64,000 bases of DNA from Gemmatimonadota bacterium (GCA_033763675.1 JANRJZ010000042.1:976-64975); one strand, 5' to 3'. Shown: positions 41,833-59,718, counted from the stretch's first letter. A program made the numbers and translations. The notes: generated by a model not told the origin, from the letters alone.

Positions 41833-41886
41833 GGCCGAACCTAGGCGGGTGCGGCGCGGCGAGTCAAGTGCGTGAAGATGCTAGAG

Positions 41887-44160
41887 TTAGGGTCTGACCT
41901 CGAAGCCCGCGCGGCTGCGGCGGATCGCGCCCGTCGCGTCCCGGACCGCGACTTCGAGATCGTACTTGCCGGGCGAGAGCCGTTCCAGCGACACGCTGCG
42001 CTGCAGCTGGGTGCGGGGCCCCTGGGACTGGTCCTCGAAGGCGAGCCGGATGGCCGGCTTCCGGGAGCCGAAGATCCCGAGGAATCCCCCGCCCCCCTGC
42101 CGGGTGATGAAGACCTCCGTCGTGAACGGCGCCCCTTCCGGCAGGCCATACACCTCGTAGTAGAGCTCCAGCGGGGACGCCTTGCGATAGCGCCGCAGCG
42201 GGTTGAACCAGACGGTGTCGCGGGCGGTGGGCCGCCACTGCAGGTTCGCCTCCCGGGTCCCCACCACCAGTCCGCTCAGCTCGAAGCGGGTGCCGGAGAA
42301 ATCACCGGCGGTGATGGTGTCGCTCGCGAGGATCACCCCGTTGTCGTCTCCCTGCTCCACGGCCAGCCGGTAGGTGAGCTCGCCGGGGATGACCGGGACC
42401 CGGACCTGCCCCACCAGGTGCTCCCGCTCCGGCACCGGCTCCCGGGCGATGAAGAGCCGCGTGGTATCCATCGTCGCCACCGGCCGCCCGGTGCGGTCCA
42501 CGACGCTGAGGCGCACCCGCACCGGATAGAGGTGACCCCGGTCGGACGGCACCTCGCGCAGCGCAGAGCCGGGAATCGCGTAGGAGAGATGCAGCAGGCT
42601 CCCGGCAGAATCGCGGCCCGCCACCACGACGTCGGTGGACACCCGGAGGCGGCTGCCGTAACGCAGCTCGTACGTGTCGCTTGCCGTACCCCGCTCGATG
42701 CTCCGGCGGCCCAGCATGCGTTCCTCGGTGAGGTACTGCTGGGAGCCGGCGGTGCCCGTCTGCAGCAGGCGGCTGTAGATCGGAGAGAGACGCTCGCGGG
42801 TGGAGAGCAAGTCGCTCACCCGGCCGGTGGTGACGTTGTCGCGGTCCCCGCGCAGGGCCAGGGCGTTGCTGAAACCCAGGACATCGAAGACGCTCTCCAC
42901 CAGCTTGTAGTCCTGCACATCCTCGCGGGCCACGAAATGGAAGACCAGGTTGCCATCGGCCCGCTCGTACATCCACGACTCATTGAACTGGATGCCGGGC
43001 GCGTTGTAGGTGGCACGCTCAACCGGCTCCCCGTGGCGGATGTACACGACCCCCCGGTCATCGAAGTCGCGACTGCCGCTGCGGAACCGCTCCACGATGT
43101 CGTAGTGCCGGTTGGGAGAGACCAGCTGGAAGTTGCGCCGGGCATAGAACACCCGCCGGTAGTGTTCCCGCAGCCGCTCGCCGTCCCGCAGCAGGGACGC
43201 CCGGTCGCGCTGACCCCAGAAGCGGCGCAGGAAGGAGACCCGGCGGTCCCCGGTATTGGCGTCGAATTCCGCGAGGGCGCTGTCATTGGCCACCAGGGCC
43301 AGGTCCGCGCGATAGGCCGCGACCGTCTCGCTGTCGTCGACCCGGGCCCCGTCATAGTAGGAACGCTGCCCCGCGAGGTTCCCGGCGAGCAGCTCGGTTC
43401 GCGCCAGCTCCAGCAGGCCCAGCCCCTGCGCGCCGCCGCCCACGAGGTAGGAACGGAACGCCACCAGCGCCGAATCGATGTCCCCCACTTCCCGTTCCAG
43501 CCGGCCGCGGTACAGCAGCACGTCGGGGTTGGCCGCGGCGCTGGTGGCGGCGGCCTGGCGCAGCGCCTCGCGGGCCAGGGCGGTCTTCACGTTGATCCGC
43601 TGGCGGAGCGCCGTGGAGGCGAGCTCCACCAGGCCACGGACGAACGACGGGTCGGTCTGGACCGAGCGGGCGTAGGCGTTGGCGGCGCGGGAGAGGTGGT
43701 CCTTGCCGAACATCGCCTGCAACCCCTGCACAATCGCGATCTCGGAATCGCCGACCCGGTCTTCCGCCGCCCCGAGCCCGTACCAGGCCCAGGGCCAGGT
43801 CGGTTCGATCTCGGTGGCCCACTGGAACTCTCCCGCCGCATCATCGAAGCGGCTCCGGCTCCCCTGCTCCCCCAGGCGCATCGCCACGAAGCCGAGCTTG
43901 AGGTGGCGCATGGCGTTATTGCGGTCGGCGCGCGCCTCCCCGATCAGCCGCTGTTCCAGCAGCAGCAGTGAGGCGCTGTCGGGCACGGCGGCAATCGAGT
44001 CCCGGAATCGCTCGATCGCGAGGCGGTCTTCGGGGGATTGGGCGGCGAGGGAGGAGGCGGCAAGCAGTACCACCAGCAGCAGCGGCCAGCGCCTCACGGC
44101 GCTCGGGAGGCGCGGTGTACAGAAGCGAGATCCCGCCTTGGCGACTCGGCTACTCGGCAT
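41887..44160 (-). CDS. GWxTD domain-containing secreted protein with N-terminal TPR-like region
   Basis: Start MPSSRVAK at 44160, then a signal sequence (WPLLLVVLLAASSLAAQ). GWxTD-type motif RRFWGQRD. Length 757 aa. Confidence 0.7.
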   Translation of the reverse strand: MPSSRVAKAGSRFCTPRLPSAVRRWPLLLVVLLAASSLAAQSPEDRLAIERFRDSIAAVPDSASLLLLEQRLIGEARADRNNAMRHLKLGFVAMRLGEQGSRSRFDDAAGEFQWATEIEPTWPWAWYGLGAAEDRVGDSEIAIVQGLQAMFGKDHLSRAANAYARSVQTDPSFVRGLVELASTALRQRINVKTALAREALRQAAATSAAANPDVLLYRGRLEREVGDIDSALVAFRSYLVGGGAQGLGLLELARTELLAGNLAGQRSYYDGARVDDSETVAAYRADLALVANDSALAEFDANTGDRRVSFLRRFWGQRDRASLLRDGERLREHYRRVFYARRNFQLVSPNRHYDIVERFRSGSRDFDDRGVVYIRHGEPVERATYNAPGIQFNESWMYERADGNLVFHFVAREDVQDYKLVESVFDVLGFSNALALRGDRDNVTTGRVSDLLSTRERLSPIYSRLLQTGTAGSQQYLTEERMLGRRSIERGTASDTYELRYGSRLRVSTDVVVAGRDSAGSLLHLSYAIPGSALREVPSDRGHLYPVRVRLSVVDRTGRPVATMDTTRLFIAREPVPEREHLVGQVRVPVIPGELTYRLAVEQGDDNGVILASDTITAGDFSGTRFELSGLVVGTREANLQWRPTARDTVWFNPLRRYRKASPLELYYEVYGLPEGAPFTTEVFITRQGGGGFLGIFGSRKPAIRLAFEDQSQGPRTQLQRSVSLERLSPGKYDLEVAVRDATGAIRRSRAGFEVRP

Positions 44161-44210
44161 CGGTCTCGTATGGTTACGCGGTCGGTGGTCCGGCTGCAAC
44201 GGCTCTCGGG

Positions 44211-46109
44211 CTAGGGGACGTCGCTCCCCTGACCTTCCGCCACACGTTTCAGAAACGTCACCAGCCCGTCCCGCACCGCGAGGGCGTAGGCCAGCTGCCC
44301 CGCCGGTTGCCGAAGGGCGGCCTCCTGGTCCGGCAGCATCAGGAAGAGTCCCTCGCACAGCACCGCCGGCATCCAGGTGGGGCGGACCAGCGCGAGGTCC
44401 CCGCGCGCGGCCCCGAGGTCCCGCAGACCGAGCCGCCGGACCAGCGCGGCCTGGATCTCCTGGGCCAGCGGCAGGCTGCGGGGGTGGTTATAGAAGACAC
44501 TCGAGCCGTTGTTGGTAAACGGATTCACCCCATCCGGCAGCGCGTTGTTGTGAATCGACACCAGTATCTCGGCATCGAGCGAGTCCGCGAACCGGGTCCG
44601 GGCGTTGAGGTCCAGGCTTTCGGGCCCGCGACGGGTCAGCACCGCCTGCGCGCCGGCGGCCTCCAGCAGCCGGACCAGCTCCAGCGAGACGGCCAGGTTG
44701 GCTTCCGCCTCCGTGAACCCGGTGGGGCCGGTCGCGCCCAGTGGCGGGTGGCCCGGATCCACCACGATGCGCCGCCCGCGAAGTGGCGCCGCCCGATCCA
44801 CCCGAGGTGGGCGCCGAATCTCAAGCAGGAGGTCGTTCCCGCTCCACCGGGTCCGGTAGCCCCAGACGACATCGCGGAGTTCGACGGTGATCGTCACCTC
44901 GTCGGAGGCGGCCTGAAGCCAGCGGATATCCCGCAGGTACCGGTCGGTGGCGCCGTACCGGGTCCAGTTGATGTCGCTGACCGTGTTGTAGAGCCGGAGC
45001 GTCAGGCGGCCCTGCTCCTCCTCGACCCGAAACGGAACGCGCCCGGTGAGCGGGACCCGAACCGTGATCCGGTCGGGCCGCGGCGTCGTCGTCAGCGACA
45101 GTACGGTGGCGCGAAGCGCGGGCGTCGCCGGCGGCAGGGGGACCAGATCGGCGGCCGGCACCCACACCTCCTGCTGCCTGGAGATCCGGATCCGCGCATC
45201 CTCCCCCAGCCGCCCGGTGAACTGGGCTCGCGTGCCCGTGGGAAAGAACCAGTGATAGGTGGCGCCGGGGCGCGCGCGCCCCACCGTGAGGCTATCCGTC
45301 GCCCCGGTACCCGCGGTGTCATCGTCGAGTTGGACGACCTGCGCCAGGGTGTCGAGCAGCGTCACCGCGAGTGGCCAGCGCAGCCGGACGGTGTCGGCGC
45401 CGAGCACCGCCTCCACGACAACGCCCGTAGAGTCCCCCGGAATGGCGCGGCCGCGGATGGCGCCAACGTAGCGTTCGGCTCGCCCTGGCGCGAGGAGGTT
45501 CGCGGTGTCCCGGTCGAACGCGCGGATTCCCCACGGAACTTCTCCGGGCCCCCGCTCGGCGGCGAGCGGAACCACGTCGCCACCGGGAAGCCGGAGGCGG
45601 ACCTCCGCCCCCTCCGCCGCGCGCAGGCTGACCGGGAGGTATTCGTCCCGGGGCCACCAGACCCGACCCCCCGGACTGAGGCTGAGACTATCCACCCAGA
45701 CCGGCGCGACCGGGGGACGGAAGCGGGGGACGGTCCGGAGCGGATGCTGGTACCGCAGGGTGTCCGAGTCGACGGTGGCGACCAGCGTGAAAGCCGGCAG
45801 GGAGTCCGGGGGGAGCGGCACCCAGGCCAGCCAGGCGCCATTGGGCCAGACCTTCACCGCCGCATCATTGATGGTCAGCCGGGCCCGGCCGGTGCCGACG
45901 GTTCCGAACAGGAAGGTTGAGTCCCGGGCGTCCACGACGTCCCGTGGCCCGGGATAGACGACCCGGATCTCGAGGGGGCCGTCCGCCATGGGAACCGGCG
46001 GGAGGAGGGATGCGTCTGGCGGGAGGGGCCCGGGGGCAGATCTCGGCCGGGCACAGCCGGCCAGGAGGACGAGCGCCAGGGGCAGAACACCGAGCACCGC
46101 AGGGGGCAT
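44211..46109 (-). CDS. N-acetylmuramoyl-L-alanine amidase (Amidase_3/AmiC-like) lipoprotein with long N-terminal region
   Basis: Start MPPAVLGVLPLALVLLAGC (lipobox) at 46109. C-terminal Amidase_3 motifs are VVDPGHPPLGATG, LVSIHNNA and VLCEGLFL. Confidence 0.8.
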   Translation of the reverse strand: MPPAVLGVLPLALVLLAGCARPRSAPGPLPPDASLLPPVPMADGPLEIRVVYPGPRDVVDARDSTFLFGTVGTGRARLTINDAAVKVWPNGAWLAWVPLPPDSLPAFTLVATVDSDTLRYQHPLRTVPRFRPPVAPVWVDSLSLSPGGRVWWPRDEYLPVSLRAAEGAEVRLRLPGGDVVPLAAERGPGEVPWGIRAFDRDTANLLAPGRAERYVGAIRGRAIPGDSTGVVVEAVLGADTVRLRWPLAVTLLDTLAQVVQLDDDTAGTGATDSLTVGRARPGATYHWFFPTGTRAQFTGRLGEDARIRISRQQEVWVPAADLVPLPPATPALRATVLSLTTTPRPDRITVRVPLTGRVPFRVEEEQGRLTLRLYNTVSDINWTRYGATDRYLRDIRWLQAASDEVTITVELRDVVWGYRTRWSGNDLLLEIRRPPRVDRAAPLRGRRIVVDPGHPPLGATGPTGFTEAEANLAVSLELVRLLEAAGAQAVLTRRGPESLDLNARTRFADSLDAEILVSIHNNALPDGVNPFTNNGSSVFYNHPRSLPLAQEIQAALVRRLGLRDLGAARGDLALVRPTWMPAVLCEGLFLMLPDQEAALRQPAGQLAYALAVRDGLVTFLKRVAEGQGSDVP

Positions 46110-46154
46110 GGGGTGCAAGGTACACGGCCACCGCGACTTAGGGCAGATCATCCG

Positions 46155-46183
46155 TTGACGCTCCACGGGCGCAATCCTAGATT
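46155..46183 (+). promoter_or_regulatory. sigma70-like promoter for the FHA/kinase operon, -10 overlapped by a palindrome
   Basis: TTGACG (46155-46160), a 17-nt spacer, then TAGATT (46178-46183). The perfect inverted repeat GCAATC-cta-GATTGC at 46171-46185 overlaps the -10. It sits in the divergent intergenic region 46110-46296. Confidence 0.35.
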
Positions 46184-46296
46184 GCTGGGATAGCCCTTCC
46201 GTACAACGTCCCAAGATCCGAGGATCACACCATCAACATGCACCCGGCGTGCGTCGGTTGGCTGGTCAGCTTCACCGCCTTCGGGGCGAGGGGCTG

Positions 46297-47214
46297 ATGT
46301 CACCACCGGCGCCGGAGGTCTCGCGCGGCCCGGCAGGTGCGGGCGCCAGCGTGAAGTGTCCGAACTGCAACGCCGGCGTCGCGGCCGACCTGCCCTTCTG
46401 CGGCCAGTGTGGCACCCGGCTGACCCAGGCGCGCGCGGCGCATGCCTGCACCCGTTGCGGCCGGCTGAACGAGCAGGGCTCCAAGTTCTGCCCCGCCTGC
46501 GGGGCCGCCTTCGGCAATACCGGGCCGCAGCCCCAGGTCCCCGCCACCCCGGCCAAGAGCGGCGGGCCCGTCACGGCGCATCTGGCCCTCCTGGACCGGG
46601 GCGGGCAGGTGGCGCAGCGCTTCCCGCTGCTCAACGCCGTGACCACCCTGGGCCGACAGGGGGCGGACGTCAACTTCCCCGATGATGACTATCTCTCCCC
46701 GCTGCACGCCCAGTTCCTCCTGATCGACGGCATCCTGACCCTGCGGGACCTCGGCAGCAAGAACGGCACCTGGCTCTACCTCGACGAACCGCACAAGCTC
46801 ACCGATGGGGACCTCATCCTCCTCGGCAGCCAGATCCTCCGCTACCGCCGGCTCGGCTATCCAGGGCCGCGTCCCCCGGAGCAGGACCAGACCCGGCGCC
46901 TGGGCAGCCTGACGCCCGCCGCGGACATCGCCAACCTGGCCCAGGTCCGGGGCGATGGCAGCGCCCGGGACATCCTGACGCTCTCCCCGGGACGGTCGGT
47001 ACGGGTGGGCCGGGAACAGGGGGACTGGCAGTTCCCGTACGATTCCTCCATGAGCGCCCTGCATGCCCTGATCCGGAGCGAGGACGCCGACTTCGTCCTG
47101 GTGGATGCCGGGAGCCGGAACGGCGTGGCCGTCGCGGTGCGGGGAGAACGGCGGGTACCGCCGGGCGCGCGGCTCCTCGCCGGGGACCAGATGCTCCGCG
47201 CGGAGATCGGATGA
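46297..47214 (+). CDS. double zinc-ribbon protein with two FHA domains
   Basis: ATG at 46297 is preceded by GAGGGG; the track starts at GTG 46249. Zinc ribbons are CPNCNAGV...FCGQCG and CTRCGRLN...FCPACG. FHA1 is TLGRQGADVNF...SPLHAQF...GSKNGTW. FHA2 is VRVGREQGDW...SALHALI...GSRNGV. Confidence 0.8.
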   Translation: MSPPAPEVSRGPAGAGASVKCPNCNAGVAADLPFCGQCGTRLTQARAAHACTRCGRLNEQGSKFCPACGAAFGNTGPQPQVPATPAKSGGPVTAHLALLDRGGQVAQRFPLLNAVTTLGRQGADVNFPDDDYLSPLHAQFLLIDGILTLRDLGSKNGTWLYLDEPHKLTDGDLILLGSQILRYRRLGYPGPRPPEQDQTRRLGSLTPAADIANLAQVRGDGSARDILTLSPGRSVRVGREQGDWQFPYDSSMSALHALIRSEDADFVLVDAGSRNGVAVAVRGERRVPPGARLLAGDQMLRAEIG

Positions 47215-48932
47215 AGGTCTGCACCACCTGCGGCGCCGAGTATGGCGACGAGAAGCTGTTCTGCGAACGGGATGGCACCTCCCTCCGGAAGTCGGGAGGG
47301 GCGGGCGATCTCGTGGGCCAGGTGATTGCGGAGCGGTACCACATCACGAAGAAGCTGGGCGAGGGCGGGATGGGCCAGGTCTACCTGGCCGAGCACGTGA
47401 AGATGGGCCGCCGCTGCGCCATCAAGATCATGACCCCGGGCACGATGAGTGACCCGGACGCGATCAGCCGCTTCAACCGCGAAGCCGCCAACGCCAGCCG
47501 CATCAGCCACCCCAATGTCTGCGCGATCTACGACTTCGGCGAGACGCCCGATGGGCTGATCTACCTCGCGATGGAGTTCATCGAAGGGAAGAGCCTGAGC
47601 GGGCTGATGGAGGAGGCGGGGACCCTGCCGCTGGCGCGCGCCGCCCTGATCGTCACCCAGACCGCCGAGGCGCTGCAGGTCGCCCACGACCTCGGTATCG
47701 TCCACCGGGACCTCAAGCCTGACAACATCATGGTGATCACCGCCCGCGGGAAGGACACCGTGAAGGTGGTGGACTTCGGCATCGCGAAGGCGATCGGCGG
47801 GGACGACGGCAGCGCCCAGAAGGTCACCAAGACCGGGTTCGTGGTAGGCACGCCGGAGTACATGAGCCCGGAACAGCTCTCCGGCGACCCGGTGGACGGC
47901 CGCAGCGACAACTATTCTTTGGGCCTGGTCTTCTACAAGATGCTGACGGGGGCGAGTCCCTTCCCCGCCGACAGCCAGCAGGAGACGATGATCAAGCGGC
48001 TGACGGACGATCCGCTGCCGCTGGCGGCGGCCCGGCCCGACGTCCGCTTCCCGCCCGAGCTGCAGCGGGTCATGGACCGGGCCCTGGCGCGGAGCCCGGC
48101 GGAGCGCTATCGCACCGCGGGCGACTTCGCGCGAGACGTGAAGGGACTCTCGAGCGTCCTGACTGGACAGGTGGATGCCGAGGCCGGCACCCAGGTGGTG
48201 CGGCCGGAGGACCTCAAGGCGGCGGTGCCGGCCACCCGGGTGGATCCGGCGGCGGGCCGGGCGGTCAAGCCCGTGCCGAAGACCCCGGCGGCTTCCTCGG
48301 CCCCGGTTGCCGCTCCCGCCAGGCCACGCCTGCCGCTGGTCCCGATCACGATCGCCGTGGCCGTCCTGGCGGTGGGCGGCGGGGGCTTCGTGTTCAAGGA
48401 TGCCATCTTTGGGGCGTCGCCCGCAGATTCCGGTGCGGTACAGGACACCAGTCGGCTGGCAGGCGGGACGCCGATTGTGCCGGAGAGCATTACGGTCAAC
48501 CCCGGCGCCACGCCGGGGACCGTGGAACCGGGGGGCGGGCGGGACACTGGCACCAAGCCGCCACGGCAGGGAGGCGGCCGGCCGACGGGGGGGCAGACCA
48601 ACCCCGACGGCACCCCGGCGAACCCGGGCGGTACCACTTCCGATCCGCCGGCGACGCCGGATCATGGGGCGCTAGAGCGCCAGGTCCTGGCGTATTATGA
48701 CGACCTCGGCTTCGAGGACGATCCGAGCAAGCGCCTGGAGGCGCGGCGGTTGGGCCAGCAGGTGTTCGGCCTCACGACGATGCCCCGCCCGGTCCGGGCC
48801 AGGGCAGCGTGGCTGGTCATGCAGGGATATCTCAAAGAGGGCAACGCCGACAAGGCACGGGAGTGGCTCGATCACGCGATCGAACTGGACCCGTCTCAAC
48901 AGTCCTGGAAGACCGTCCGGGCGCAGATGTGA
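47211..48932 (+). CDS. Ser/Thr protein kinase: N-terminal Cys motif - kinase - TM - TPR-like extracytoplasmic tail
   Basis: ATGA overlap with the upstream gene. N-terminal Cys motif MKVCTTCGAEYGDEKLFCERDG. Kinase motifs GEGGMGQVY, HRDLKPDN, DFGIAK and SPEQ. TM helix LVPITIAVAVLAVGGGGFVF. Helical C-terminus. Confidence 0.9.
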   Translation: MKVCTTCGAEYGDEKLFCERDGTSLRKSGGAGDLVGQVIAERYHITKKLGEGGMGQVYLAEHVKMGRRCAIKIMTPGTMSDPDAISRFNREAANASRISHPNVCAIYDFGETPDGLIYLAMEFIEGKSLSGLMEEAGTLPLARAALIVTQTAEALQVAHDLGIVHRDLKPDNIMVITARGKDTVKVVDFGIAKAIGGDDGSAQKVTKTGFVVGTPEYMSPEQLSGDPVDGRSDNYSLGLVFYKMLTGASPFPADSQQETMIKRLTDDPLPLAAARPDVRFPPELQRVMDRALARSPAERYRTAGDFARDVKGLSSVLTGQVDAEAGTQVVRPEDLKAAVPATRVDPAAGRAVKPVPKTPAASSAPVAAPARPRLPLVPITIAVAVLAVGGGGFVFKDAIFGASPADSGAVQDTSRLAGGTPIVPESITVNPGATPGTVEPGGGRDTGTKPPRQGGGRPTGGQTNPDGTPANPGGTTSDPPATPDHGALERQVLAYYDDLGFEDDPSKRLEARRLGQQVFGLTTMPRPVRARAAWLVMQGYLKEGNADKAREWLDHAIELDPSQQSWKTVRAQM

Positions 48933-48938
48933 GGCAAC

Positions 48939-49961
48939 TTGGCTAACGTGCACATCTCCGTCTTCGGCAAGACCGACGTGGGCAAGACCCGCGACCACAA
49001 CGAGGACACCTTCCTCGTCGCGGACCTCACCCGCAAGGTCGCGTCCCTGCAGCCCGACGTGCGCGAGCACGATGTCGGGCCGCGCGGCACGCTCTTCATG
49101 GTCGCGGACGGCATGGGCGGCGCCGCCGCCGGCGAGGTGGCGAGCCGCATGGCCGCCGACCTGGTCTTCAGCCACATGTCGAGCGCCTGGGCCGAGGACA
49201 GCGATGTCAGCGCGCAGCGCTTTGCCTACCGGATGAAGGAAGCGGTGGAGCTGGCCAACAACCGGATCCACCTGCACGCCAAGGAGCATCCCGAAGTCCG
49301 CGGCATGGGCACCACCGCCACGGTGGCCGGCGTCTTCGGGAGCGATCTCTACCTGGCCCAGGTCGGGGACAGCCGGGCGTACCTGATCCGGAAGGGCGCC
49401 ATCACCCAGATCACCAAGGACCAGTCGCTCATGCAGCGACTGGTCGAGGCCGGGGAGCTCACCGAGGAGGAGGCCGAGCAGAGCGAGCGGCGGAACATCA
49501 TCCTCCAGGCCCTCGGGCCCGACCCCCGGGTCAAGGTGGACCTCACCTACCAGCCCCTCCGCCGGGGCGACCTGCTGGTGCTCTGCTCCGACGGGCTCTC
49601 CGGCCAGGTCAAGAAGGAGGAGATCGCCCAGCTGGTCGCCGAGGGCGGCGAACTGGTGGACATCTGCTCGCGGCTCATCACCCTGGCCAATGAGCGGGGC
49701 GGCCCGGACAACATCACGGCGATCGCCGCCCGCTTCGGCGGCGACGGGCTGCCCGAGCCGGACGGCAGCGCGGAAGTGGGCCACCAGGTCTATCCGCTCA
49801 CCGAGGCGGAGGCCACCACCGAGCCGGTCCCCGTCTACACCGGCAGCCCCGCCCCCGTGCCCATCAACGAGCAGCCGGCCCAGCCCCGGCGCACGGCGCT
49901 GGGGCTGCTCGCGCTGCTCGCGCTGGCCGCCGCGCTCTACCTCGCGTTCGGTGGCCGGTGA
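48939..49961 (+). CDS. PP2C-family Ser/Thr phosphatase with C-terminal TM anchor
   Basis: PP2C motifs DVGKTRDHNED, VADGMGG, VGDSRAY, CSDGL and GGPDNIT. C-terminal hydrophobic helix LGLLALLALAAALYLAF. Start is TTG 48939 or GTG 48948. Confidence 0.9.
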   Translation: MANVHISVFGKTDVGKTRDHNEDTFLVADLTRKVASLQPDVREHDVGPRGTLFMVADGMGGAAAGEVASRMAADLVFSHMSSAWAEDSDVSAQRFAYRMKEAVELANNRIHLHAKEHPEVRGMGTTATVAGVFGSDLYLAQVGDSRAYLIRKGAITQITKDQSLMQRLVEAGELTEEEAEQSERRNIILQALGPDPRVKVDLTYQPLRRGDLLVLCSDGLSGQVKKEEIAQLVAEGGELVDICSRLITLANERGGPDNITAIAARFGGDGLPEPDGSAEVGHQVYPLTEAEATTEPVPVYTGSPAPVPINEQPAQPRRTALGLLALLALAAALYLAFGGR

Positions 49962-49974
49962 CGGGCCGGCGTCC

Positions 49975-51426
49975 ATGAAAGCGCAGTTCACGTTTCTCTC
50001 CGGCGCCCGTGCGGGCCAGACCGACGTCTTCAGCCAGGCCCATATCAGCATCGGCCGGCACCCCCAATCCGAACTCCGCTTCGACGCCGACCAGGACCTC
50101 GACGTCTCGAGCCGCCATGCCTCGGTCACGCTGGTGGGCGAGTTCTACGTCCTCCGGGACCTGGGTAGCACCAACGGCACCTTCGTGAACGGCAAGAAGC
50201 TCACGGGGGATCACATGCTGGCCACCCGGGACGTGATCCGCTTCGGCCCGAGCGGCCCGCAGGTGGAGTTCACCGCCATCGGAGCCCCGCGGCCGGCGCC
50301 AGGCCCGACGCCACCGGCCAAGCCGGAGGGCACGGTGGTCTTCGGCCAGCAGCCACCCGCCCCGCCGCCACCGCCCCACCCGCAGCTCTCCCCGGAGCAG
50401 TTGCGGAGCCCCCGGCGTACCCCGGGGCCCGGCACGCAGACCAAGGTCCGCATGGAAGTCCGGCGCCAGACCAAGGGGCTCCGGACCACCACCATCGGGC
50501 TGTTCGCCCTGCTGCTCGTGCTGTCCGGCGCCTATCTCTGGCAGGTCCGGGCGGCCGACCAGGCGCTCGCCGACCAGCGGCGGGTGCTGCTCGGACAGGT
50601 GGACAGCCTGATGCAGGAGATCGGTGCCATCGCGCAGGGCAACGAGGGCCTGCGGGCGGCCCTCGACTCCTCCCAGGTCGAGGCGGAGCGGCTGCGGCAG
50701 CTGCTGGCCAACGCGCCGGACCAGGACCGGATGGCGGAGCTGCGCGCCCGGCTGGAACAGGCGCTCCGGCAGCAGCGTTCCCTCGCCGGTGCGGCCTCCG
50801 TGGATGCACGCGGGATTGCCGCGGCCAATCGGGACGCGGTTGCCCTGGTGTTCGTGGAGTTTCCGGACGGGCGGGTCATCACCGGCACCGCCTTCGCGGT
50901 CCGATCCGATCCGAACGGCGGGCTGCTGATTACCAACAAGCACGTGGTGGTGGACTCCAACGGCACCGTTGCCAGCCGGCTGGGAGTGGTGTTCGAGGGC
51001 TCCCGGCAGAATTTCCGCGCCGACCTGGTCCGGGTGTCGCCGGATGCAGATGTCGCGCTGATCCGGGCCTCGGTGCATCGGGGCTTCCCGGTCGTGAAGT
51101 CGCTGGCGGACAGCGGCCGGGTGGTGGAAGTGGGCGAGCCGAGCGCGGTGCTCGGCTTTCCGCTGGGTCTCGACCTCGCGGGCGGGCAGGATTGGAGCCA
51201 GGTGGGGGTGGCGAGCACGCTCACCCTGGGCACCGTGTCCCGGACCCTCCCCGACCTGGTGCAACTGGACAGCTACGGCGCCCAGGGCGCGAGCGGCAGT
51301 CCCATCTTCGACCGCAACGGCAACGTCATCGCGGTGCTCTACGGCGGCCAGCCCGGCAGCGACGGCCGTATCCTCTACGGTGTACCGATTCGCTTCGCCC
51401 ACCGGCTGCTCTCCAATAGCGATTAA
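49975..51426 (+). CDS. FHA domain - TM - coiled coil - trypsin-like (S1) serine protease
   Basis: ATG at 49975 is in frame within track ORF 49690..51426.
- FHA domain: ISIGRHPQSELRF...SSRHASV...GSTNGTFVNG
- Pro-rich linker, then TM helix TTIGLFALLLVLSGAYLW
- Heptad-like region: LADQRRVLLGQVDSLMQEIG...
- Candidate catalytic triad: ITNKHVV, ADVALIR, GASGSPIF. Confidence 0.8.
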   Translation: MKAQFTFLSGARAGQTDVFSQAHISIGRHPQSELRFDADQDLDVSSRHASVTLVGEFYVLRDLGSTNGTFVNGKKLTGDHMLATRDVIRFGPSGPQVEFTAIGAPRPAPGPTPPAKPEGTVVFGQQPPAPPPPPHPQLSPEQLRSPRRTPGPGTQTKVRMEVRRQTKGLRTTTIGLFALLLVLSGAYLWQVRAADQALADQRRVLLGQVDSLMQEIGAIAQGNEGLRAALDSSQVEAERLRQLLANAPDQDRMAELRARLEQALRQQRSLAGAASVDARGIAAANRDAVALVFVEFPDGRVITGTAFAVRSDPNGGLLITNKHVVVDSNGTVASRLGVVFEGSRQNFRADLVRVSPDADVALIRASVHRGFPVVKSLADSGRVVEVGEPSAVLGFPLGLDLAGGQDWSQVGVASTLTLGTVSRTLPDLVQLDSYGAQGASGSPIFDRNGNVIAVLYGGQPGSDGRILYGVPIRFAHRLLSNSD

Positions 51427-51457
51427 CTCCCCCGGGTGAGGGGGGTCACCGCCAGAA

Positions 51458-54400
51458 ATGGCCCCACATCCCATGATGGACGGGATGCCCCCCCGCCCCA
51501 TGGCTGTCCTGCGCGCGAAGATGGACCGCCTCCTGAGTCGCGCCGCGCTCGGGGGGGCACTGCTGTTCGTGGCCGGTGTCGGCGCCGGCACCTGGTGGGC
51601 CTTGGACCAGATCCATGAGGCGGTACGGCAATCGGTGCAGACCGGCCTCACCACCGTCCTTGCCAATGCGCGCGAGGCCACCCACCACTGGGTCACTCGA
51701 CAGCAGGTGCTGGTTGCCGGGCTCGCCTCGGACCGTGGACTCAGCCGGGCGGTGGAGCGGCTGCAGGATCCTCGTGCCACGGCACGGGCAGCCGGGGACG
51801 CCATCAGCACCATCAGCACCACCCTGGAGCCCGCTGTCCGCGCCAGCAGCCTCCAGGGGTTCTGGATCCTCACCCCGGATGGCTACCCGCTCTATCGCTC
51901 GCCCGACACCCTCCCGGCCGACCTTCCGGTCGCCATGCAGGAGCCGTTCGAACGAGCCCTCGACGGCCTCCCCACCCTCAGCTCCTTCGCGACCGACACG
52001 CTGCGGCCCGGGCCCGTTGCCGCCCTGGCGCCCATCCGGGACGCGCACGGCCAGCCGATCGCGGCGCTGGCCCTGGCCCTGCCCGCCCGCACGGAACTGG
52101 AGCAGATCGCCGCCCAGAGCCATCACCGGGCGCTGGGCCAGGTCTATTTCTTTGACCGCACCGGGCGGATTCTCGGGACCAGCATGGCGCCGGAGCCCTG
52201 GAGGGACGAGGCCCGCCTGGTGGACCCCCGCACCGGGCGGTTCACCCGGATGGCCCTGGCGGCCATCGCGGGGGGCAGCGACCTCGATCTCGACGGCTAC
52301 ACCGATCACCACGGAGAGCGGGTCGTCGGGGCCTGGGAGTGGGACCCCCAACTGGGCATCGGCATCGCGGTCGAAACCCGCGCCGCGGACGCCTACCACG
52401 TCGTCGAGACGGCGCGGCGTGCCCTGCTGGCGGCGCTGGCCATCACGCTGTTGCTCTTCCTCGCGGTGCTCGCCAGCGTCACCCAGGCCCGGCGCCGGGC
52501 GCTGGCCCTCACGGCGCTGCAGCATCGCCTGGCGGCGGTGCTCGAGTCCACCACCGACCCGGTCTGTTTCGCCGATGAACTCGGCACCCCCATCTACCTC
52601 AACGAGGCCGGCCGGGTGCTCCTGGTGGGCCCCCACGGCTCACCGTCCGCCGCGATCTCGGCGGCGCGGCTGCTGCTGCGGCCGGAGGCGCGGGAGGCGG
52701 CGCAGCGCCATGGCACCTGGAGCGGCGAGAGCACCCTGCTCACCGCCGATGGCCGCGACCTCACCCTCTCCCAGGTGCTCATCTGCCACCGCACCGACGC
52801 CGGCGTGGTGGACTTCTACTCCACCTTGGCGCGGGACATCACCGACCGGAAGCAGCTCGAGCGCCGGCTGTCGGAGGAAAAGGAGCGGGCCGAGGTGACC
52901 CTGGGCTCGATCGGTGACGCGGTGATCCGGACCGATGCCGCCGGCCAGATCGAGTACCTGAACCCGGTGGCCGAGGAGCTCCTCGGCTGCCCGGCGTCGG
53001 AGCTGGAAGGCCGCGGGATCTCCTCCGTCCTGACCCTCGCACACGAGTCCACCCGGGAGCCGCTGGAGAATCCCGTGGAGACGGCCATCCGGGAGCGGCG
53101 GGTCGTGGGCCGGTCCAATTTCTCCCTCCTTGTCCGCCCCGATGGCCGCGAGTTCGCGATCGACGAGAGCGCTGCCCCCATTACCGGCGGCGACGGCGAG
53201 ATCCTCGGCGCCGTGTTCATCTTCCACGACGTGAGTCGGGCCCGGAGCCTGGCGCGGCAGCTGGCGCACCAGGCCAGCCACGACTTTCTGACCGGCCTGG
53301 TCAACCGGCACGAGTTCGAGCGGCGGGTGGGGCGGGCTCTCACCCGGGCGCAGCAGGATGGGGTGACGCATGCCCTCTGTTTCCTCGACCTGGACCAGTT
53401 CAAGGTGGTGAACGACACTTGCGGGCACGTCGCCGGGGACGAGCTGCTCCGGCAGCTGGCGCAGGCCCTGACTCGCAAGGTGCGCCGCCGGGATACCCTG
53501 GCCCGGCTGGGCGGCGATGAGTTCGGGGTGCTGCTGGAACACTGCGTACCCGGCCAGGCCAGCCGGGTCGCCCAGGACCTGCTGGCCACGATCCAGGAGT
53601 TCCGGTTCTCGTGGGAGGGGAAGCCCTTTGCCCTGGGGGTCAGTATCGGGGTGGTGCCGATCACGGCCGAAAGCGAGAGCCTCGCGACCATTCTCCGCGA
53701 CGCCGACGCCGCCTGCTACGCCGCCAAGGAGCGGGGCCGCAACCGGGTGCATATCTACGAGACCAACGATGTGGAGCTGGCGGTGCGCCAGGGCGAGATG
53801 CAGTGGGTCAGCCGGATCACCAGCGCCCTGGAGGAACACCGCTTCCGGCTCTATGGCCAGCCGATCGTCCCCCTCATCACCCGGCCCGGGGAGCCGCAGC
53901 GGGTGGAGGTGCTGCTGCGGATGGTGGACCATGACGGGACGCTGATCGCCCCGGGGGCATTCATCCCCGCGGCCGAGCGCTACAACCTGATGGGGGCGGT
54001 GGATCGCTGGGTGGTGCGGGAAGTGACGGCGCTGTATGAACGGGCGGGCGCGCAGGGCGCCGTCCCCATCGCCTCGATCAACCTCTCCGGGGCCTCCCTT
54101 GGCGATCCGACGATGCTGACCTTCGTCCGGGAGCAGCTGGCGCGGCATGCCCTGAGCCCCGCCACCCTCTGTTTCGAGATCACCGAGACGGCCGCGATCG
54201 CCAACCTCGGCCTCGCGGCGCATTTCATCCGTGAGCTCAAGGCCATGGGATGCTGGTTCGCCCTGGACGACTTCGGCAGCGGCATGTCGTCCTTCGCCTA
54301 CCTGCAGAGCCTGCCGGTGGACGCACTCAAGATCGCCGGGGCGTTCCTCCGCCACATCGAGACCGATCCGGTCGAGCACGCCATGGTGGAGGCGATCACC

Positions 54401-54640
54401 CGGGTGGGCCACGTGATGCGGCTCAAGGTGGTGGCCGAAGGGGTGGAGAACTTGGACACGCTGGCCACGCTGCGGGCCATCGGCGTAGACTACGCGCAGG
54501 GTTTCGCCATTGCGGAGCCGAGCCCGCTGGAGCCGCTGGTGCTCGGCCCCGGGCTCAAGGTGCTGGGCGGCGGAGCAGCAGGGCGCCGAGGGCCAGCATC
54601 CCCCCCAGGATCACCACGCTCCAGGCCAGCCATCGCCTGA
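51458..54640 (+). CDS. membrane sensor diguanylate cyclase/phosphodiesterase (periplasmic Cache-like - PAS x2 - GGDEF - EAL)
   Basis: Two TM helices flank a loop of about 280 aa. There are two PAS-like regions. The GGDEF domain (RLGGDEFGVLL) has an RxxD I-site 5 residues upstream (RRRDTLARLGGDEF). The EAL domain carries EVLLR, EITET, DDFGSGMSS, EGVE and QGF. Confidence 0.9.
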   Translation: MAPHPMMDGMPPRPMAVLRAKMDRLLSRAALGGALLFVAGVGAGTWWALDQIHEAVRQSVQTGLTTVLANAREATHHWVTRQQVLVAGLASDRGLSRAVERLQDPRATARAAGDAISTISTTLEPAVRASSLQGFWILTPDGYPLYRSPDTLPADLPVAMQEPFERALDGLPTLSSFATDTLRPGPVAALAPIRDAHGQPIAALALALPARTELEQIAAQSHHRALGQVYFFDRTGRILGTSMAPEPWRDEARLVDPRTGRFTRMALAAIAGGSDLDLDGYTDHHGERVVGAWEWDPQLGIGIAVETRAADAYHVVETARRALLAALAITLLLFLAVLASVTQARRRALALTALQHRLAAVLESTTDPVCFADELGTPIYLNEAGRVLLVGPHGSPSAAISAARLLLRPEAREAAQRHGTWSGESTLLTADGRDLTLSQVLICHRTDAGVVDFYSTLARDITDRKQLERRLSEEKERAEVTLGSIGDAVIRTDAAGQIEYLNPVAEELLGCPASELEGRGISSVLTLAHESTREPLENPVETAIRERRVVGRSNFSLLVRPDGREFAIDESAAPITGGDGEILGAVFIFHDVSRARSLARQLAHQASHDFLTGLVNRHEFERRVGRALTRAQQDGVTHALCFLDLDQFKVVNDTCGHVAGDELLRQLAQALTRKVRRRDTLARLGGDEFGVLLEHCVPGQASRVAQDLLATIQEFRFSWEGKPFALGVSIGVVPITAESESLATILRDADAACYAAKERGRNRVHIYETNDVELAVRQGEMQWVSRITSALEEHRFRLYGQPIVPLITRPGEPQRVEVLLRMVDHDGTLIAPGAFIPAAERYNLMGAVDRWVVREVTALYERAGAQGAVPIASINLSGASLGDPTMLTFVREQLARHALSPATLCFEITETAAIANLGLAAHFIRELKAMGCWFALDDFGSGMSSFAYLQSLPVDALKIAGAFLRHIETDPVEHAMVEAITRVGHVMRLKVVAEGVENLDTLATLRAIGVDYAQGFAIAEPSPLEPLVLGPGLKVLGGGAAGRRGPASPPGSPRSRPAIA

Positions 54641-56201
54641 GGTCCCGGCCCAGGTCGTCGAGCGGCGGGAGCCCGGTCGCCGCGCGCTGCGGTCCCCACG
54701 CGCCCCCGGGCCGGACCCGGCGGTAGAAACCCTCCAGCACCTCGGGCCGCTCCGGCGGCGAGAGCAGCATGACCGGCAGCCACACGGCGAGGCTGCCGAA
54801 GGCCGTGACGGCCAGCTTGACGCCGAAGCCAAGCGCGGCGTAGGCGGGGACCAGGCTCGCGAACGCGATGACCAGGGCCGCCCCCATGGCCGCGATTTCC
54901 GCCCAGGCGTTGATCCGCCACCAGAACCAGCGCAGCAGCAGCACCAGCCCCGGCCCGGTGCCGATCAGGATCAGGAACCGGAACACCGTGCCCACGTCGT
55001 CCATGAAGAACGACACCGCCGCCGCCAGGACGGTGAGCCCGATGGAACACCACCGCGCCGCTGCCATCAGCTTCCGCTCCTCCGACACACCGGCGAACCG
55101 GGCGTAGAGGTCGTTCACCAGGTAGCTGGCTCCCCAGTTGACCTGGGTGGAGACGGTGGACATGAACGCCGCCAGCAGGCTGGCAAAGACCAGCCCGAGG
55201 AGCCCGGGCGGGAGGTATCGCAGCATGAGGATGGGATACGCGAGTTCCGGATCCTCGAGCCCCGGCAGGAGGAGCAGGGCCGCCAGTCCCACCAGGATCC
55301 AGGGCCAGGTCCGCACCACGTAGTTGAGGATGTTGAAGGCGTGGGTGGCCCGCTCCGCCTCCTGCTCATTGGCCGTGGCCGACAGCCGCTGCACGAACAT
55401 CCCGCCACCATCGCTGTTGCGGAACGCCCACCACTGGATGCCCAGGTACCCGAGCAGCGTGGTGAGCGGCAGGAGCGCGTCCTCGCCCCGGGGCACCAGC
55501 TGCAGGTGGGCGCCCTTCCCCGCCGCATGCAGCCCCTCGACCAGCGCGCCGACGCCGCCCACCTCGTGCAGGGCGTAGAACATCACGATGAGGGCCCCGG
55601 CCATCGCCAGCACGTACTGGAGCAGGTCGGTCACCACGACGCCCCAGAGCCCCGCAACCGCGGTGTAGGCCACGGTGATGATGACGATCGGCATGATGGC
55701 CCAGAGCCGGTCGTCCCCCGGGAGTCCCTGCAGGTTCTGGAGCAGCCCCAGCCCCTCCATCACCTTCCGCAGCGCCAGCATGCCGTAGCCGATGGAGATG
55801 CAGTTGAGCGGCACCGCGAAGAGAAAGGCGCGAAAGCCCCGCAGGAATGCGGCGGGATGACCGCCGTAGCGCAGCTCCGTGAGCTGCAGGTCGGTCATGA
55901 CGTTGGCGCGGCGCCAGAGCTTGGCGAGGAGCACCGCCAGCAGCACGTGCGCCAGGGCGAAGCACCACCACTCCCAGTTGCCGGCCACGCCCCGTCGCGC
56001 CACCACCCCCGCCACGTAGAGCGGGGTGTCCACGTTGAAGGTCGTGGCCGCCATCGAGGTGGCGGCCAGCCACCACGGGATCGCGCGGCCACCGACGAAG
56101 AACTCGGCCATGTTCCGGGCGCCCCGGCGCGCCACCCAGAGCCCCAGGGCCAGGCTGGCGCCGAGATAGAGCGCGACGACCAGCCAGTCAAGCAGGGTCA
56201 T
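54555..56201 (-). CDS. sodium:solute symporter (SSS) family transporter, paralog 2
   Basis: Start MTLLDWLVVALYLG at 56201 overlaps the nagZ stop (ATGA). SSS N-terminus AEFFVGGRAIPWWLAATSMAATTFNVDTP. It is the last gene of the murQ-anmK-nagZ string. Confidence 0.85.
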   Translation of the reverse strand: MTLLDWLVVALYLGASLALGLWVARRGARNMAEFFVGGRAIPWWLAATSMAATTFNVDTPLYVAGVVARRGVAGNWEWWCFALAHVLLAVLLAKLWRRANVMTDLQLTELRYGGHPAAFLRGFRAFLFAVPLNCISIGYGMLALRKVMEGLGLLQNLQGLPGDDRLWAIMPIVIITVAYTAVAGLWGVVVTDLLQYVLAMAGALIVMFYALHEVGGVGALVEGLHAAGKGAHLQLVPRGEDALLPLTTLLGYLGIQWWAFRNSDGGGMFVQRLSATANEQEAERATHAFNILNYVVRTWPWILVGLAALLLLPGLEDPELAYPILMLRYLPPGLLGLVFASLLAAFMSTVSTQVNWGASYLVNDLYARFAGVSEERKLMAAARWCSIGLTVLAAAVSFFMDDVGTVFRFLILIGTGPGLVLLLRWFWWRINAWAEIAAMGAALVIAFASLVPAYAALGFGVKLAVTAFGSLAVWLPVMLLSPPERPEVLEGFYRRVRPGGAWGPQRAATGLPPLDDLGRDLRRWLAWSVVILGGMLALGALLLRRPAP

Positions 56202-57631
56202 TCCGGGCTTCCCTGCCGCACCCCCAGCCAGCGGGCCACCGCGTGCTGCATGAGCGGCTGCCGGTGCCACGCCACCAGCACCGGCGGCCCCGCCGGGATC
56301 TCCGCCAGCAGCCGTTCGTGGGCAAAGAGCACCACCAGCGCCGCGCCCGGCACGGCCGTGGCCAGGGCCGCTCGCGAGTCGGCGCCGAACCCCGCCCGGC
56401 CCTTGGCCGCCCGGGGCTCGGCGAACGCCAGCACTACCCGCGGTGCGCCCCGGCGCTCGAACACGCCCCGGGCCGCAAGCCGCCGCCGCACCAGGTCACT
56501 CGGGCCGGGAGCGTACCAGCCCCCCTGATCATCGTCGATCACCTGCAACTCGAAGCCGCCAGAGAGATCGGGGAGGTCGCCCCGGTGCAGGCCCGTGGCC
56601 AGCAGCCGCGCGGCGACCGCGTCGGCGCCGGCGTGATCGGGCGCGAGGGGCGTCTGCGCCTGCTCCACGGCGGCAACCGCCGCGTCATACCGGGCAAGGG
56701 AGGTCCCTACCTGGGCAGGGGACAGTGTCCCGTCCGCTGCTGCCGCAGTGAGCGCCGCGATGGTTCCCGGGATGTCGCCGGGATAAAGCAGCAGGTCGCA
56801 GCCGGCGCGGATGGACGCGACCGCGGCCTCCGGCTCTCCCCGGCCGGCGCGGGCACCGCTCATGATGAATGCGTCGGTCACGATCAGCCCCTGGAAGCCG
56901 AGCCGCGCGCGGAGATGCCCCAGGATCACCGGGGAGGAGGTGGCGGGTGCGCCGCTCGGATCCCAGGCGGGGAACGCGACATGCGAGGTCATCACCGCCC
57001 CCACGCCGGCGGCCACCGCGGCCCCGAACGGGACGAGGTCACTGGATTCGAGCTGGCTGCGCGAGAGGGGTACCGCCGGGAGGGTATCGTGGGAGTCGTG
57101 CCGGGTCCGGCCGTGGCCGGGGTAGTGCTTGGCGCAGGCCACCACGCCCTCGCGCTGACAGGCCTCGATCCAGGCGGCCACCTGCCCGCCCACTCGCGCC
57201 GGGTCCGCCCCGAATGCCCGGGTCTGGACGATCGGGTTCTCGGGCTCGAGGTCGAGGTCGGCCACCGGGGCGAAGACCCAGTTGATTCCGACCGACCGGG
57301 CGTCCCGTCCGGTGGTGGCGCCGGCCCAGGTGATGACCCCGGGATCGTCGAGCGCGGCCAAGGCCCGCGGGGGCGGCACCTCCGTCAGTCCCCGCGCCTG
57401 CTGCCCTGCGCCGCGCTCGAGATCGGCGCCGATCAGGACCGGGCGGCCGGCGGCAGCTCGGATCTCCGCGGTGAGGGCCGCGACCTCGTCCGCGCGGGCA
57501 CCCGGAACGCCAAAGATGATGAAGCCCCCGACCCCCAGGTCGAGCGCCCGGCGCATGGCCCCGAGTTCGTGATGGAAGCCGGTCTCCCGGCGCCAGCGAA
57601 GGGCCGGAAGGACCAGGCGGGCCAGGGTCAT
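56198..57631 (-). CDS. nagZ: beta-N-acetylhexosaminidase NagZ (GH3) with C-terminal extension
   Basis: Start MTLARLVLPAL at 57631 overlaps the anmK stop (ATGA). GH3 motifs KHYPGHG and LIVTDAFIM. At about 477 aa it is longer than the roughly 340 aa typical of NagZ. Confidence 0.85.
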   Translation of the reverse strand: MTLARLVLPALRWRRETGFHHELGAMRRALDLGVGGFIIFGVPGARADEVAALTAEIRAAAGRPVLIGADLERGAGQQARGLTEVPPPRALAALDDPGVITWAGATTGRDARSVGINWVFAPVADLDLEPENPIVQTRAFGADPARVGGQVAAWIEACQREGVVACAKHYPGHGRTRHDSHDTLPAVPLSRSQLESSDLVPFGAAVAAGVGAVMTSHVAFPAWDPSGAPATSSPVILGHLRARLGFQGLIVTDAFIMSGARAGRGEPEAAVASIRAGCDLLLYPGDIPGTIAALTAAAADGTLSPAQVGTSLARYDAAVAAVEQAQTPLAPDHAGADAVAARLLATGLHRGDLPDLSGGFELQVIDDDQGGWYAPGPSDLVRRRLAARGVFERRGAPRVVLAFAEPRAAKGRAGFGADSRAALATAVPGAALVVLFAHERLLAEIPAGPPVLVAWHRQPLMQHAVARWLGVRQGSPE

Positions 57632-59660: not shown

Positions 59661-59718
59661 TGGTGGGCGCGGGGGGCGCGACCTAAATTAGGTGTAGTCG
59701 GTCCACCCCAGCAATGAC

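Follow-up and report, generated by a model that had tools for sequence, protein, structure and literature searches.

Bacterial Ser/Thr kinase, PP2C phosphatase and FHA modules steer cell-wall synthesis and secretion, and the FHA readers of these systems act on cytoplasmic or membrane partners. Among such systems is the actinobacterial fhaA-fhaB(fipA)-pstP-rodA-pbpA-pknA-pknB cluster, a cell-wall and division operon. Here we describe a locus of a Gemmatimonadota bacterium in which a phosphothreonine (pThr) reader is fused to a predicted periplasmic protease, which would link cytoplasmic phosphorylation directly to proteolysis beyond the membrane. The locus is found on a stretch of 64,000 nt (GCA_033763675.1, JANRJZ010000042.1:976-64975; G+C ~70%), hereafter called the window, whose nearest relatives are without exception metagenome-assembled genomes (MAGs) of Gemmatimonadales/Gemmatimonadota. 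All positions are counted from the first letter of the window. Five genes (g1 to g5) are concerned:

46297-47214, + strand: g1, protein with a double zinc ribbon and two FHA domains (alternative start: in-frame GTG at 46249)
47211-48932, + strand: g2, Ser/Thr kinase
48939-49961, + strand: g3, PP2C phosphatase
49975-51426, + strand: g4, FHA-transmembrane-protease protein
51458-54640, + strand: g5, GGDEF-EAL protein

We propose, with moderate confidence, that g1 to g4 represent a Gemmatimonadota-wide Hanks-kinase cassette (a zinc-ribbon/2xFHA adaptor, a kinase, a PP2C and an FHA-transmembrane-HtrA-like protease) for inside-out control of periplasmic proteolysis, with cell-wall enzymes as the likeliest targets. 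The role of the cassette is probably the control of cell-wall turnover, and it is of interest chiefly because it suggests an output class of bacterial Ser/Thr kinases that would be new and open to testing. An initial annotation of this DNA had described five co-directional genes with a 4-nt overlap and gaps of 6, 13 and 31 nt, and both coordinates and spacing were found to be exact: g1 and g2 share an ATGA at 47211-47214 (-4 nt), and the three gaps separate g2 from g3, g3 from g4 and g4 from g5, respectively. The domain architectures that it gave for all five genes were likewise recovered with Pfam and NCBIfam, apart from a TPR-like tail of the kinase (see below).

Like the actinobacterial cluster, this locus encodes two FHA proteins (one soluble, the other membrane-anchored), a PP2C with a membrane anchor and a Hanks kinase that crosses the membrane once, in a putative operon beside peptidoglycan enzymes. 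In contrast to that cluster, PASTA repeats, RodA and PbpA are absent and the membrane FHA protein is extended by a periplasmic protease; the adjacent genes are hydrolytic or recycling (amidase, NagZ, AnmK and MurQ) rather than synthetic, and the host is a diderm. Membership in the actinobacterial cluster was rejected, with no SEDS or bPBP genes and no PASTA kinase identified in 39.8-61.5 kb.

Other described systems resemble single aspects of the locus. [quoted passage not shown] As at the present locus, a Hanks kinase, a PP2C and an FHA reader are involved, and in the T6SS they switch an envelope-spanning machine via pThr docking; the output here is a protease and not a secretion apparatus. 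We rejected assignment to the T6SS pathway, as no T6SS genes are present in ~36.5-64 kb and VI_FHA matches score 26-39 bits against a cut-off of 120. The vWA-STPK-FHA-PP2C operon of Deinococcus radiodurans (bioRxiv 10.64898/2026.01.23.701218) similarly encodes a kinase, an FHA protein and a PP2C with antagonistic control, but that system is cytoplasmic and DNA-damage-linked, has a vWA partner, and lacks both a protease and an envelope context. Finally, a 2008 domain survey lists an FHA-FHA-trypsin architecture in Bacteroides thetaiotaomicron (NP_811686.1) without an accompanying study (PMC2605481). This protein is like g4 in that FHA is fused to an S1 protease, but it has two FHA domains where g4 has one; when it was compared with the three-FHA relative P0266, which served as the query, the identity was 24-25%. 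The survey was the only item returned by a literature search on FHA-protease fusions and FHA signalling in Gemmatimonas, which found no functional study.

For g4, a look-up found no record of the exact sequence, and relatives were used instead. The protein consists of an FHA domain (Pfam, E-value: 2.3e-16), a transmembrane segment at residues 171-189 and a Trypsin_2 domain (E-value: 1.4e-18), and both hydropathy and an AlphaFold2 model indicate a cytoplasmic FHA domain, a single membrane crossing and a periplasmic protease. In this model (based on a 47-sequence alignment, with a mean predicted local distance difference test score of 79), a confident FHA domain (1-102) is followed by a linker that is Pro-rich and disordered (104-155), a long helix that includes the transmembrane segment (155-219), more helices up to residue 288 and a confident two-barrel protease (289-480), after which the protein ends within three residues. 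A helical stalk of ~100 residues thus lies between the membrane and the protease. The best Foldseek matches of the protease are the protease domains of DegP, DegS and HtrA1 (target-normalised template modelling scores 0.75-0.83, E-value: ~1e-13, 20-25% identity). By sequence, the solved chains nearest to the protease are Mycobacterium tuberculosis HtrA1, DegQ and MarP, and those nearest to the FHA domain are GarA, OdhI and FhaA.

Residue conservation was assessed for all five proteins in orthologue alignments extracted from 22 genome loci. For g4, the catalytic triad (H323, D359 and S440) and the FHA residues R28, S45, H48 and N67 are conserved in 22/22 sequences. All seven residues are also invariant or at least 90% conserved in a 67-sequence far family with a mean column identity of 37%, and a transmembrane segment is found between FHA and protease in 114 of 118 far-family representatives. 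In its chymotrypsin fold and His-Asp-Ser triad, g4 agrees with the HtrA/DegP/DegS (S1C) proteases, which it further resembles in being a periplasmic protease tethered to the inner membrane. Unlike these proteases, g4 has no PDZ domain by Pfam and therefore lacks a periplasmic peptide sensor, while its cytoplasmic FHA domain implies control from inside the cell. The protein was accordingly described as HtrA-like in fold only and not as a member of the HtrA family: the defining PDZ is missing, and scores against the TIGR02037, DegS and HtrA models are 20-44 bits where the cut-offs exceed 400. Assignment to the MarP family was also rejected, based on a score of 38.6 bits against NF033740 (cut-off 250) and on the presence of a single transmembrane helix rather than four N-terminal ones.

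The g1 protein, which is cytoplasmic and has no transmembrane segment by hydropathy, contains a double zinc ribbon (DZR, Pfam E-value: 7.9e-9) and FHA sequence in two stretches (E-value: 2e-19); 16-17 of 17 orthologues retain all eight of its Cys residues as well as both GR/SxxH/NG sets. For the FHA domains of both g1 and g4, the best-scoring model is FhaB/FipA, although its cut-off is not reached. The Gly-Arg, Ser-x-x-His and Asn-Gly residues that bind pThr, whose absence would have spoken against a reader function, are present in all three FHA domains and conserved in 16-22 of 17-22 orthologues. From these residues, the two FHA domains of g1 and that of g4 are predicted to bind pThr.

The g2 protein (Pkinase, E-value: 4.6e-50) is composed of an N-terminal CxxC...CxxD zinc-ribbon-like motif (residues 4-21, conserved in 17/19 orthologues), the kinase domain, a Thr-bearing juxtamembrane segment, a single transmembrane segment at 376-394 (by hydropathy), a periplasmic linker and a tail. 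It carries the hallmarks of a Hanks-type Ser/Thr kinase: a Gly-rich loop, the catalytic Lys, the motifs HRD and DFG, and an activation segment with (A/T)PE at its end. Specifically, GxGxxG (GEGGMGQV), the AIK lysine, HRDLKPDN, DFG and TPEYMSPE are kept in every orthologue that covers them (17-18/19, the others being truncated or frameshifted). The catalytic residues are therefore intact, as first noted from HRD and DFG; their loss would have counted against the hypothesis put forward in the initial annotation. Of the kinase features that it listed, the membrane anchor and the N-terminal Cys motif were confirmed, and the TPR-like outer tail gave sub-threshold matches only (E-value: 0.007). We do not classify g2 as a PknB/Stk1 PASTA kinase, since Pfam finds no PASTA repeats in it and its NF033483 score is 313 bits (cut-off 450), with an alignment confined to model positions 2-353 of 563.

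The phosphatase g3 belongs to the Stp1/IreP family of PP2C enzymes: it scores 241.1 bits against NF033484 (cut-off 230) over model positions 1-231 of 232. Of 20 orthologues, 16-20 retain its metal-binding motifs (RDHNED, DGMGG, SDG and GGPDN; 19-20 for every residue except one), and hydropathy places a C-terminal membrane anchor at residues 320-338.

In total, ~45 related loci were surveyed. In 17 of the 17 order-level loci that are long enough to show g1 to g4, the order and the tight junctions are kept; across species, g1 and g2 overlap by 4 nt (-4), g2 and g3 are separated by ~6 nt and g3 and g4 by 10-22 nt. A phmmer search with g4 against 1.84 billion representatives gave 295 clusters at E<1e-30, many of them full-length at 35-50% identity, and all of the named members are Gemmatimonadota. 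Deeper loci were taken from the genomic contexts of these relatives and from a metagenome scan with a 12-sequence alignment, which was analysed by tblastn; the scan returned 80 loci, mostly generic FHA matches, of which only ~13 were usable. The deep loci contain the following features:

~20 deep loci: PP2C gene directly upstream of g4, often overlapping it; always found (g4 identity 35-47%)
11 of 14 deep loci: kinase gene in cis upstream of the PP2C gene
7 of 11 deep loci: g1 in cis
8 of 9 deep loci: divergent Amidase_3 gene
Every deep Gemmatimonadota locus whose sequence reaches that far, L030 excepted: convergent AnmK-MurQ downstream of g4, in most cases together with NagZ
No deep locus: g5

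Across the ~45 loci, the stable core is a PP2C gene followed by the FHA-transmembrane-protease gene, with the kinase gene usually upstream and the zinc-ribbon/2xFHA gene often first. The PP2C gene precedes the protease gene in each Gemmatimonadota locus that has sequence at this place. In L030, a kinase gene (with a Big_2 ectodomain), the PP2C gene and the FHA-protease gene are kept together between quite different flanking genes. Conserved synteny, which the initial annotation had suggested looking for, is thus seen for g1 to g4 and does not extend to g5.

Variants of the arrangement were also observed. In L033 (64-1934), the zinc-ribbon/2xFHA gene is followed after ~290 nt by the PP2C gene directly, the kinase gene having been lost from the operon, and in L046 both g1 and the kinase gene are missing in cis. 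L029 (8471-12202) carries a 656-residue variant with three FHA domains, a transmembrane segment and a protease, followed by a kinase gene, with no PP2C or amidase gene nearby; longer relatives of this variant have 812 and 828 residues (P0189 and P0287).

The same kinds of parts are found outside Gemmatimonadota. In a Bacteroidota MAG (L112:1846-8299), a kinase gene, whose product carries an SH3_3 ectodomain, overlaps a gene for a 2xFHA-transmembrane-S1-protease by 4 nt, and NamZ is encoded two genes away. In L114 (7001-15474; also in L115), genes for a 2xFHA-transmembrane-protease, an FHA protein, a PP2C, a kinase-FHA fusion and a 1219-residue kinase follow one another in a row as one operon, and this contig is probably of Bacteroidota, judging from its T9SS-type (type IX secretion system) neighbours. 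The Bacteroidota-type FHA-proteases have a transmembrane segment between FHA and protease and intact active-site motifs; they are related to the B. thetaiotaomicron protein, and kinase and PP2C genes lie beside theirs. The return of these part types with a changed order and setting argues for a functional cassette rather than inherited gene order, and we consider this the strongest argument in its favour. Together with the conserved order and tight junctions described above, recurrence in another phylum bears out the view that the FHA/kinase/PP2C set is truly linked to an FHA-tethered extracytoplasmic protease.

It is possible, though we suggest this only tentatively, that these proteins define an unrecognised class of Hanks-kinase output, in which a pThr reader fused via one transmembrane helix to a periplasmic HtrA-like protease would convert Thr phosphorylation into proteolysis of cell-wall hydrolases, and in which the cassette would occur in at least Gemmatimonadota and Bacteroidota. 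Should the locus of the genetically tractable B. thetaiotaomicron prove to hold this cassette, that species would allow a test of the hypothesis. In a separate contig (L113:7001-11640), a gene for a 2xFHA-transmembrane-SLT (lytic transglycosylase) protein adjoins a PEGA-domain Ser/Thr kinase gene inside a cluster that, unlike the present locus, is a true T6SS example. By its predicted domains, this protein shows the same design, with a pThr reader fused across the membrane to another periplasmic cell-wall enzyme.

In the mechanism that we envisage for the Gemmatimonadota cassette, the kinase would autophosphorylate Thr in its own juxtamembrane segment, phosphorylate the cytoplasmic linker of g4, or both, possibly with a contribution from the second kinase, encoded in the divergent operon. 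These pThr sites would be bound by the FHA domains of g1 and g4, and docking would recruit or cluster the single-pass protease; in this way, the cytoplasmic phosphorylation state would set periplasmic proteolysis from the inside out. The PP2C, encoded directly upstream of the protease, would reset the system. Candidate docking sites in the juxtamembrane segment of g2 are the conserved EAGTQVV and PATRVDP motifs. In deep lineages, this segment retains a P-x-T motif; the L032 group carries T-E-L-[IL]. In g4, T166-x-x-L169 beside the transmembrane segment does not vary within the near clade and shows 67% conservation in the far family.

The likeliest substrates would be cell-wall remodelling enzymes or hydrolases, first among them the divergent Amidase_3 lipoprotein, and cleavage of this amidase would tie peptidoglycan cleavage to the neighbouring NagZ-AnmK-MurQ recycling. 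Control of a cell-wall hydrolase by an S1 protease has an experimental precedent in mycobacteria, where HtrA-LppZ counteracts the Amidase_3-type Ami3 (PMC6538288). If this mechanism is correct, it would give diderm bacteria a new means of controlling cell-wall hydrolases and peptidoglycan turnover, and would be the reverse of DegS-type outside-in sensing. MarP reportedly activates RipA, which would be a second precedent for a membrane-anchored S1 protease acting on a cell-wall hydrolase. If the mechanism holds, the cassette would moreover be a first entry point for functional work on signalling in Gemmatimonadota, a phylum that is widespread in soil and for which molecular genetics hardly exists.

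Several points weigh against this interpretation. First, the FHA docking sites named above are guesses; T120 in the g4 linker was rejected as a conserved phospho-site because it is confined to the near clade. Second, the step from monomeric FHA binding to a change in the activity of an HtrA-like domain without PDZ is one that we can only infer. Third, the kinase gene is not in cis in L027, L033 and L046 and g1 is missing from several lineages, so the partners are not obligatory neighbours. Fourth, the Bacteroidota operon of L114 has no cell-wall genes nearby. Fifth, gene order over the entire ~25 kb is collinear throughout the phylum, and this stretch also holds GGT and ABC transporter genes that have no evident role in the cell wall, so the adjacency of the amidase and recycling genes may in part be inherited gene order and is weak evidence on its own.

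The protease might alternatively act on the kinase itself. In such a self-regulating switch, the FHA-docked protease would clip the long, disordered periplasmic linker of g2 or its tail, giving feedback or an irreversible on/off step in place of control over another substrate. The ectodomain of g2 would be suited to this, consisting of a Pro/Gly/Thr-rich and poorly conserved linker of ~100 residues and a small helical tail, and FHA docking at the juxtamembrane Thr motifs would set both ectodomains side by side; in addition, kinase and protease genes are adjacent in two phyla. However, the PP2C-protease pair persists in the three loci without a kinase gene in cis, and kinase ectodomains vary by lineage (Big_2 in L030 and SH3_3 in L112, for example). 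We consider this explanation unlikely.

The initial annotation had gone further than the cassette proposed here: it treated g1 to g5 as a single unit in which pThr is converted both into periplasmic proteolysis and, via g5, into a change in cyclic di-GMP (c-di-GMP). The g5 protein has a transmembrane-dCache-transmembrane-PAS-GGDEF-EAL architecture (dCache_1, 7e-10, which is below the Pfam cut-off; PAS; GGDEF, 4e-42; EAL, 1.7e-60) and the sequence features of a GGDEF-EAL enzyme: a GGDEF motif, an RxxD I-site five residues before it, and the EAL-domain residues. These catalytic residues are intact, since GGDEF, RxxD and the EAL set (E-x-L as EVL, N, E-x-x-E, DDFG, K, EGVE and Q) are conserved in 12-13 of 13 orthologues. 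The gene follows g4 in nearly all order-level loci with downstream sequence. In the window, g1-g5 co-transcription is possible because the g4-g5 gap is 31 nt and no terminator-like site was detected between any of the five genes. The longer g4-g5 gaps of two relatives (L010 and L018) were checked and contain no promoter-like site, which neither proves nor excludes an independent g5 transcript.

On the other hand, the g4-g5 gap ranges from 31 to 203 nt across order-level loci, compared with the tight junctions of g1 to g4, and g5 has its own dCache/PAS sensors, no FHA domain and no identified phospho-acceptor. L020 and L022, the most divergent pair among the order-level loci, lack the gene and have a molybdopterin oxidoreductase operon starting ~0.8 kb after g4; g5 is also missing from every deep relative with downstream sequence. 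An MFS transporter gene (Acatn/MFS_1; possibly AmpG-like) occupies its slot in L027 (11394-12608) and overlaps the end of g4. Because g5 is absent from all deep relatives and its slot is filled by a transporter gene in L027, we interpret it as a later, clade-specific insertion between g4 and the convergent recycling operon, and as part of neither the core unit nor the mechanism. Its restriction to the clade of the window, its variable spacing and its absence from deeper relatives likewise argue against c-di-GMP as a core output. A conversion of pThr into a c-di-GMP change finds no support beyond the adjacency of g5 in one clade; the five-gene model as a whole seems quite unlikely, and the c-di-GMP link should be dropped from the core model.

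A third explanation is that the genes are uncoupled neighbours, in which a housekeeping kinase/phosphatase pair and an envelope quality-control protease have been kept together by the collinearity of the region. The ~25 kb of conserved gene order, with its unrelated GGT and ABC transporter genes, is what this explanation would predict. Set against it are the canonical and conserved pThr reader that g4 itself bears, the overlapping or very short PP2C-g4 junctions, and the recurrence of the component set with other flanks (L030) and, reordered, in Bacteroidota-type contigs; we find it very unlikely. A role in anti-phage defence or conflict, with a Ser/Thr kinase and a protease as effector at the centre of the system, was rejected on genomic context as having almost no chance of being correct, because the PADLOC matches (g2 to the PD-T4-6 and mad6 kinase models and g4, weakly, to RT-Protease_XI models) cover generic kinase and protease domains only, g1, g3 and g5 have no PADLOC match, the protease is periplasmic, and the genes hold a fixed chromosomal place beside housekeeping cell-wall genes throughout the phylum, unlike mobile defence islands.

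The genes surrounding the cassette are as follows:

39808-41880, - strand: second zinc-ribbon Ser/Thr kinase, with a transmembrane segment and a periplasmic TonB_C-like domain (Pkinase, 4.5e-49; Zn_Ribbon_1, 3e-6; TonB_C, 6.8e-6)
41887-44358, - strand: GWxTD-domain protein (TIGR04514, 36.5 bits against a cut-off of 28)
44211-46109, - strand: lipoprotein with a C-terminal compact (CwlV/LytH-type) Amidase_3 domain (1.7e-32), first gene of the divergent operon
54555-59687, - strand: SSF transporter, NagZ-like GH3, AnmK and MurQ (by Pfam and NCBIfam), convergent to the cassette

The cell-envelope context that had been described for the locus is real, and consists of the divergent amidase/GWxTD operon and the NagZ-AnmK-MurQ genes (AnmK, 408 bits against a cut-off of 387; MurQ, 391 bits against a cut-off of 168). 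Two details required correction. The peptidoglycan-recycling genes do lie downstream as stated, though not as a co-directional operon: they are convergent, on the - strand. In addition, the description of the amidase as AmiC-like was inaccurate. In PDB alignments, its catalytic domain (44214-44822, - strand) aligns end to end with compact CwlV/LytH/CwlD-type amidases, while those to AmiA, AmiB and AmiC do not continue past about residue 95-111. This suggests that the amidase lacks the autoinhibitory regulatory insert of the cell-separation amidases. The protein carries a signal/lipobox sequence (MPPAVLGVLPLALVLLAGC), and Pfam has no match in its N-terminal region of ~430 residues.

The amidase-GWxTD-second kinase operon (39808-46109, - strand) is divergent to the g1 promoter and is kept in most relatives, among them L027, which lacks g2. 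The second kinase gene is the last of this operon, a position that it holds in most order-level loci and in several deep ones; two predicted Hanks kinases thus flank one regulatory region at this locus. The true start of the GWxTD gene is probably near 44050-44100, as relatives align from residue ~107 onwards.

Three features precede g1:

46155-46183, + strand: sigma-70-like promoter of the g1 operon (TTGACG-17-TAGATT), the sole match in 45900-55000
46184-46296, + strand: 5' leader of g1, with a conserved GAGGA...ATC...GGCG block and an upstream open reading frame (uORF)
46238-46297, + strand: uORF of 19 codons (MHPACVGW...), whose TGA overlaps the ATG of g1 (TGATG)

The promoter had been reported from the window alone, and it is indeed conserved: both hexamers are kept, with a variable spacer sequence, in 16 of the 17 relatives checked (the extracted stretch of the seventeenth started downstream of the -35 box), and they are retained in four deep relatives (L023, L026, L027 and L028). 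Kept hexamers with a drifting spacer are the footprint typical of genuine -35 and -10 boxes, which these are predicted to be.

In the leader, a uORF of 19-20 codons with an identical stop/start overlap was found in 8 of 14 relatives. Its ATG is mutated in L001, L003, L004, L008, L010 and L014, and the nucleotides around it are still conserved. A structured RNA was rejected as the reason for the conserved leader block, as an Rfam search of 39-60 kb gave no match and RNAalifold on the g1 leader found no conserved structure (three pairs only, with zero covariation).

Between the amidase ATG and the -35 box, a block of ~45 nt (46110-46154; CTGCAAGGTACAC...GACTTA...GGCAGATC) is highly conserved, and its GCAAGGTA core persists in the deep relatives L026, L027, L032-L047 and L046. 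On the - strand, the TAAGTC in this block, ~25 nt before the amidase ATG, may represent the -10 box of the amidase gene with a short leader.

At the other end of the locus, g5 and the convergent SSF transporter gene share 86 nt at their 3' ends (54555-54640). The C-terminal tails of both proteins are unconserved, with alignments to relatives ending ~40 residues before the stop of g5 and ~17 residues before that of the SSF transporter.

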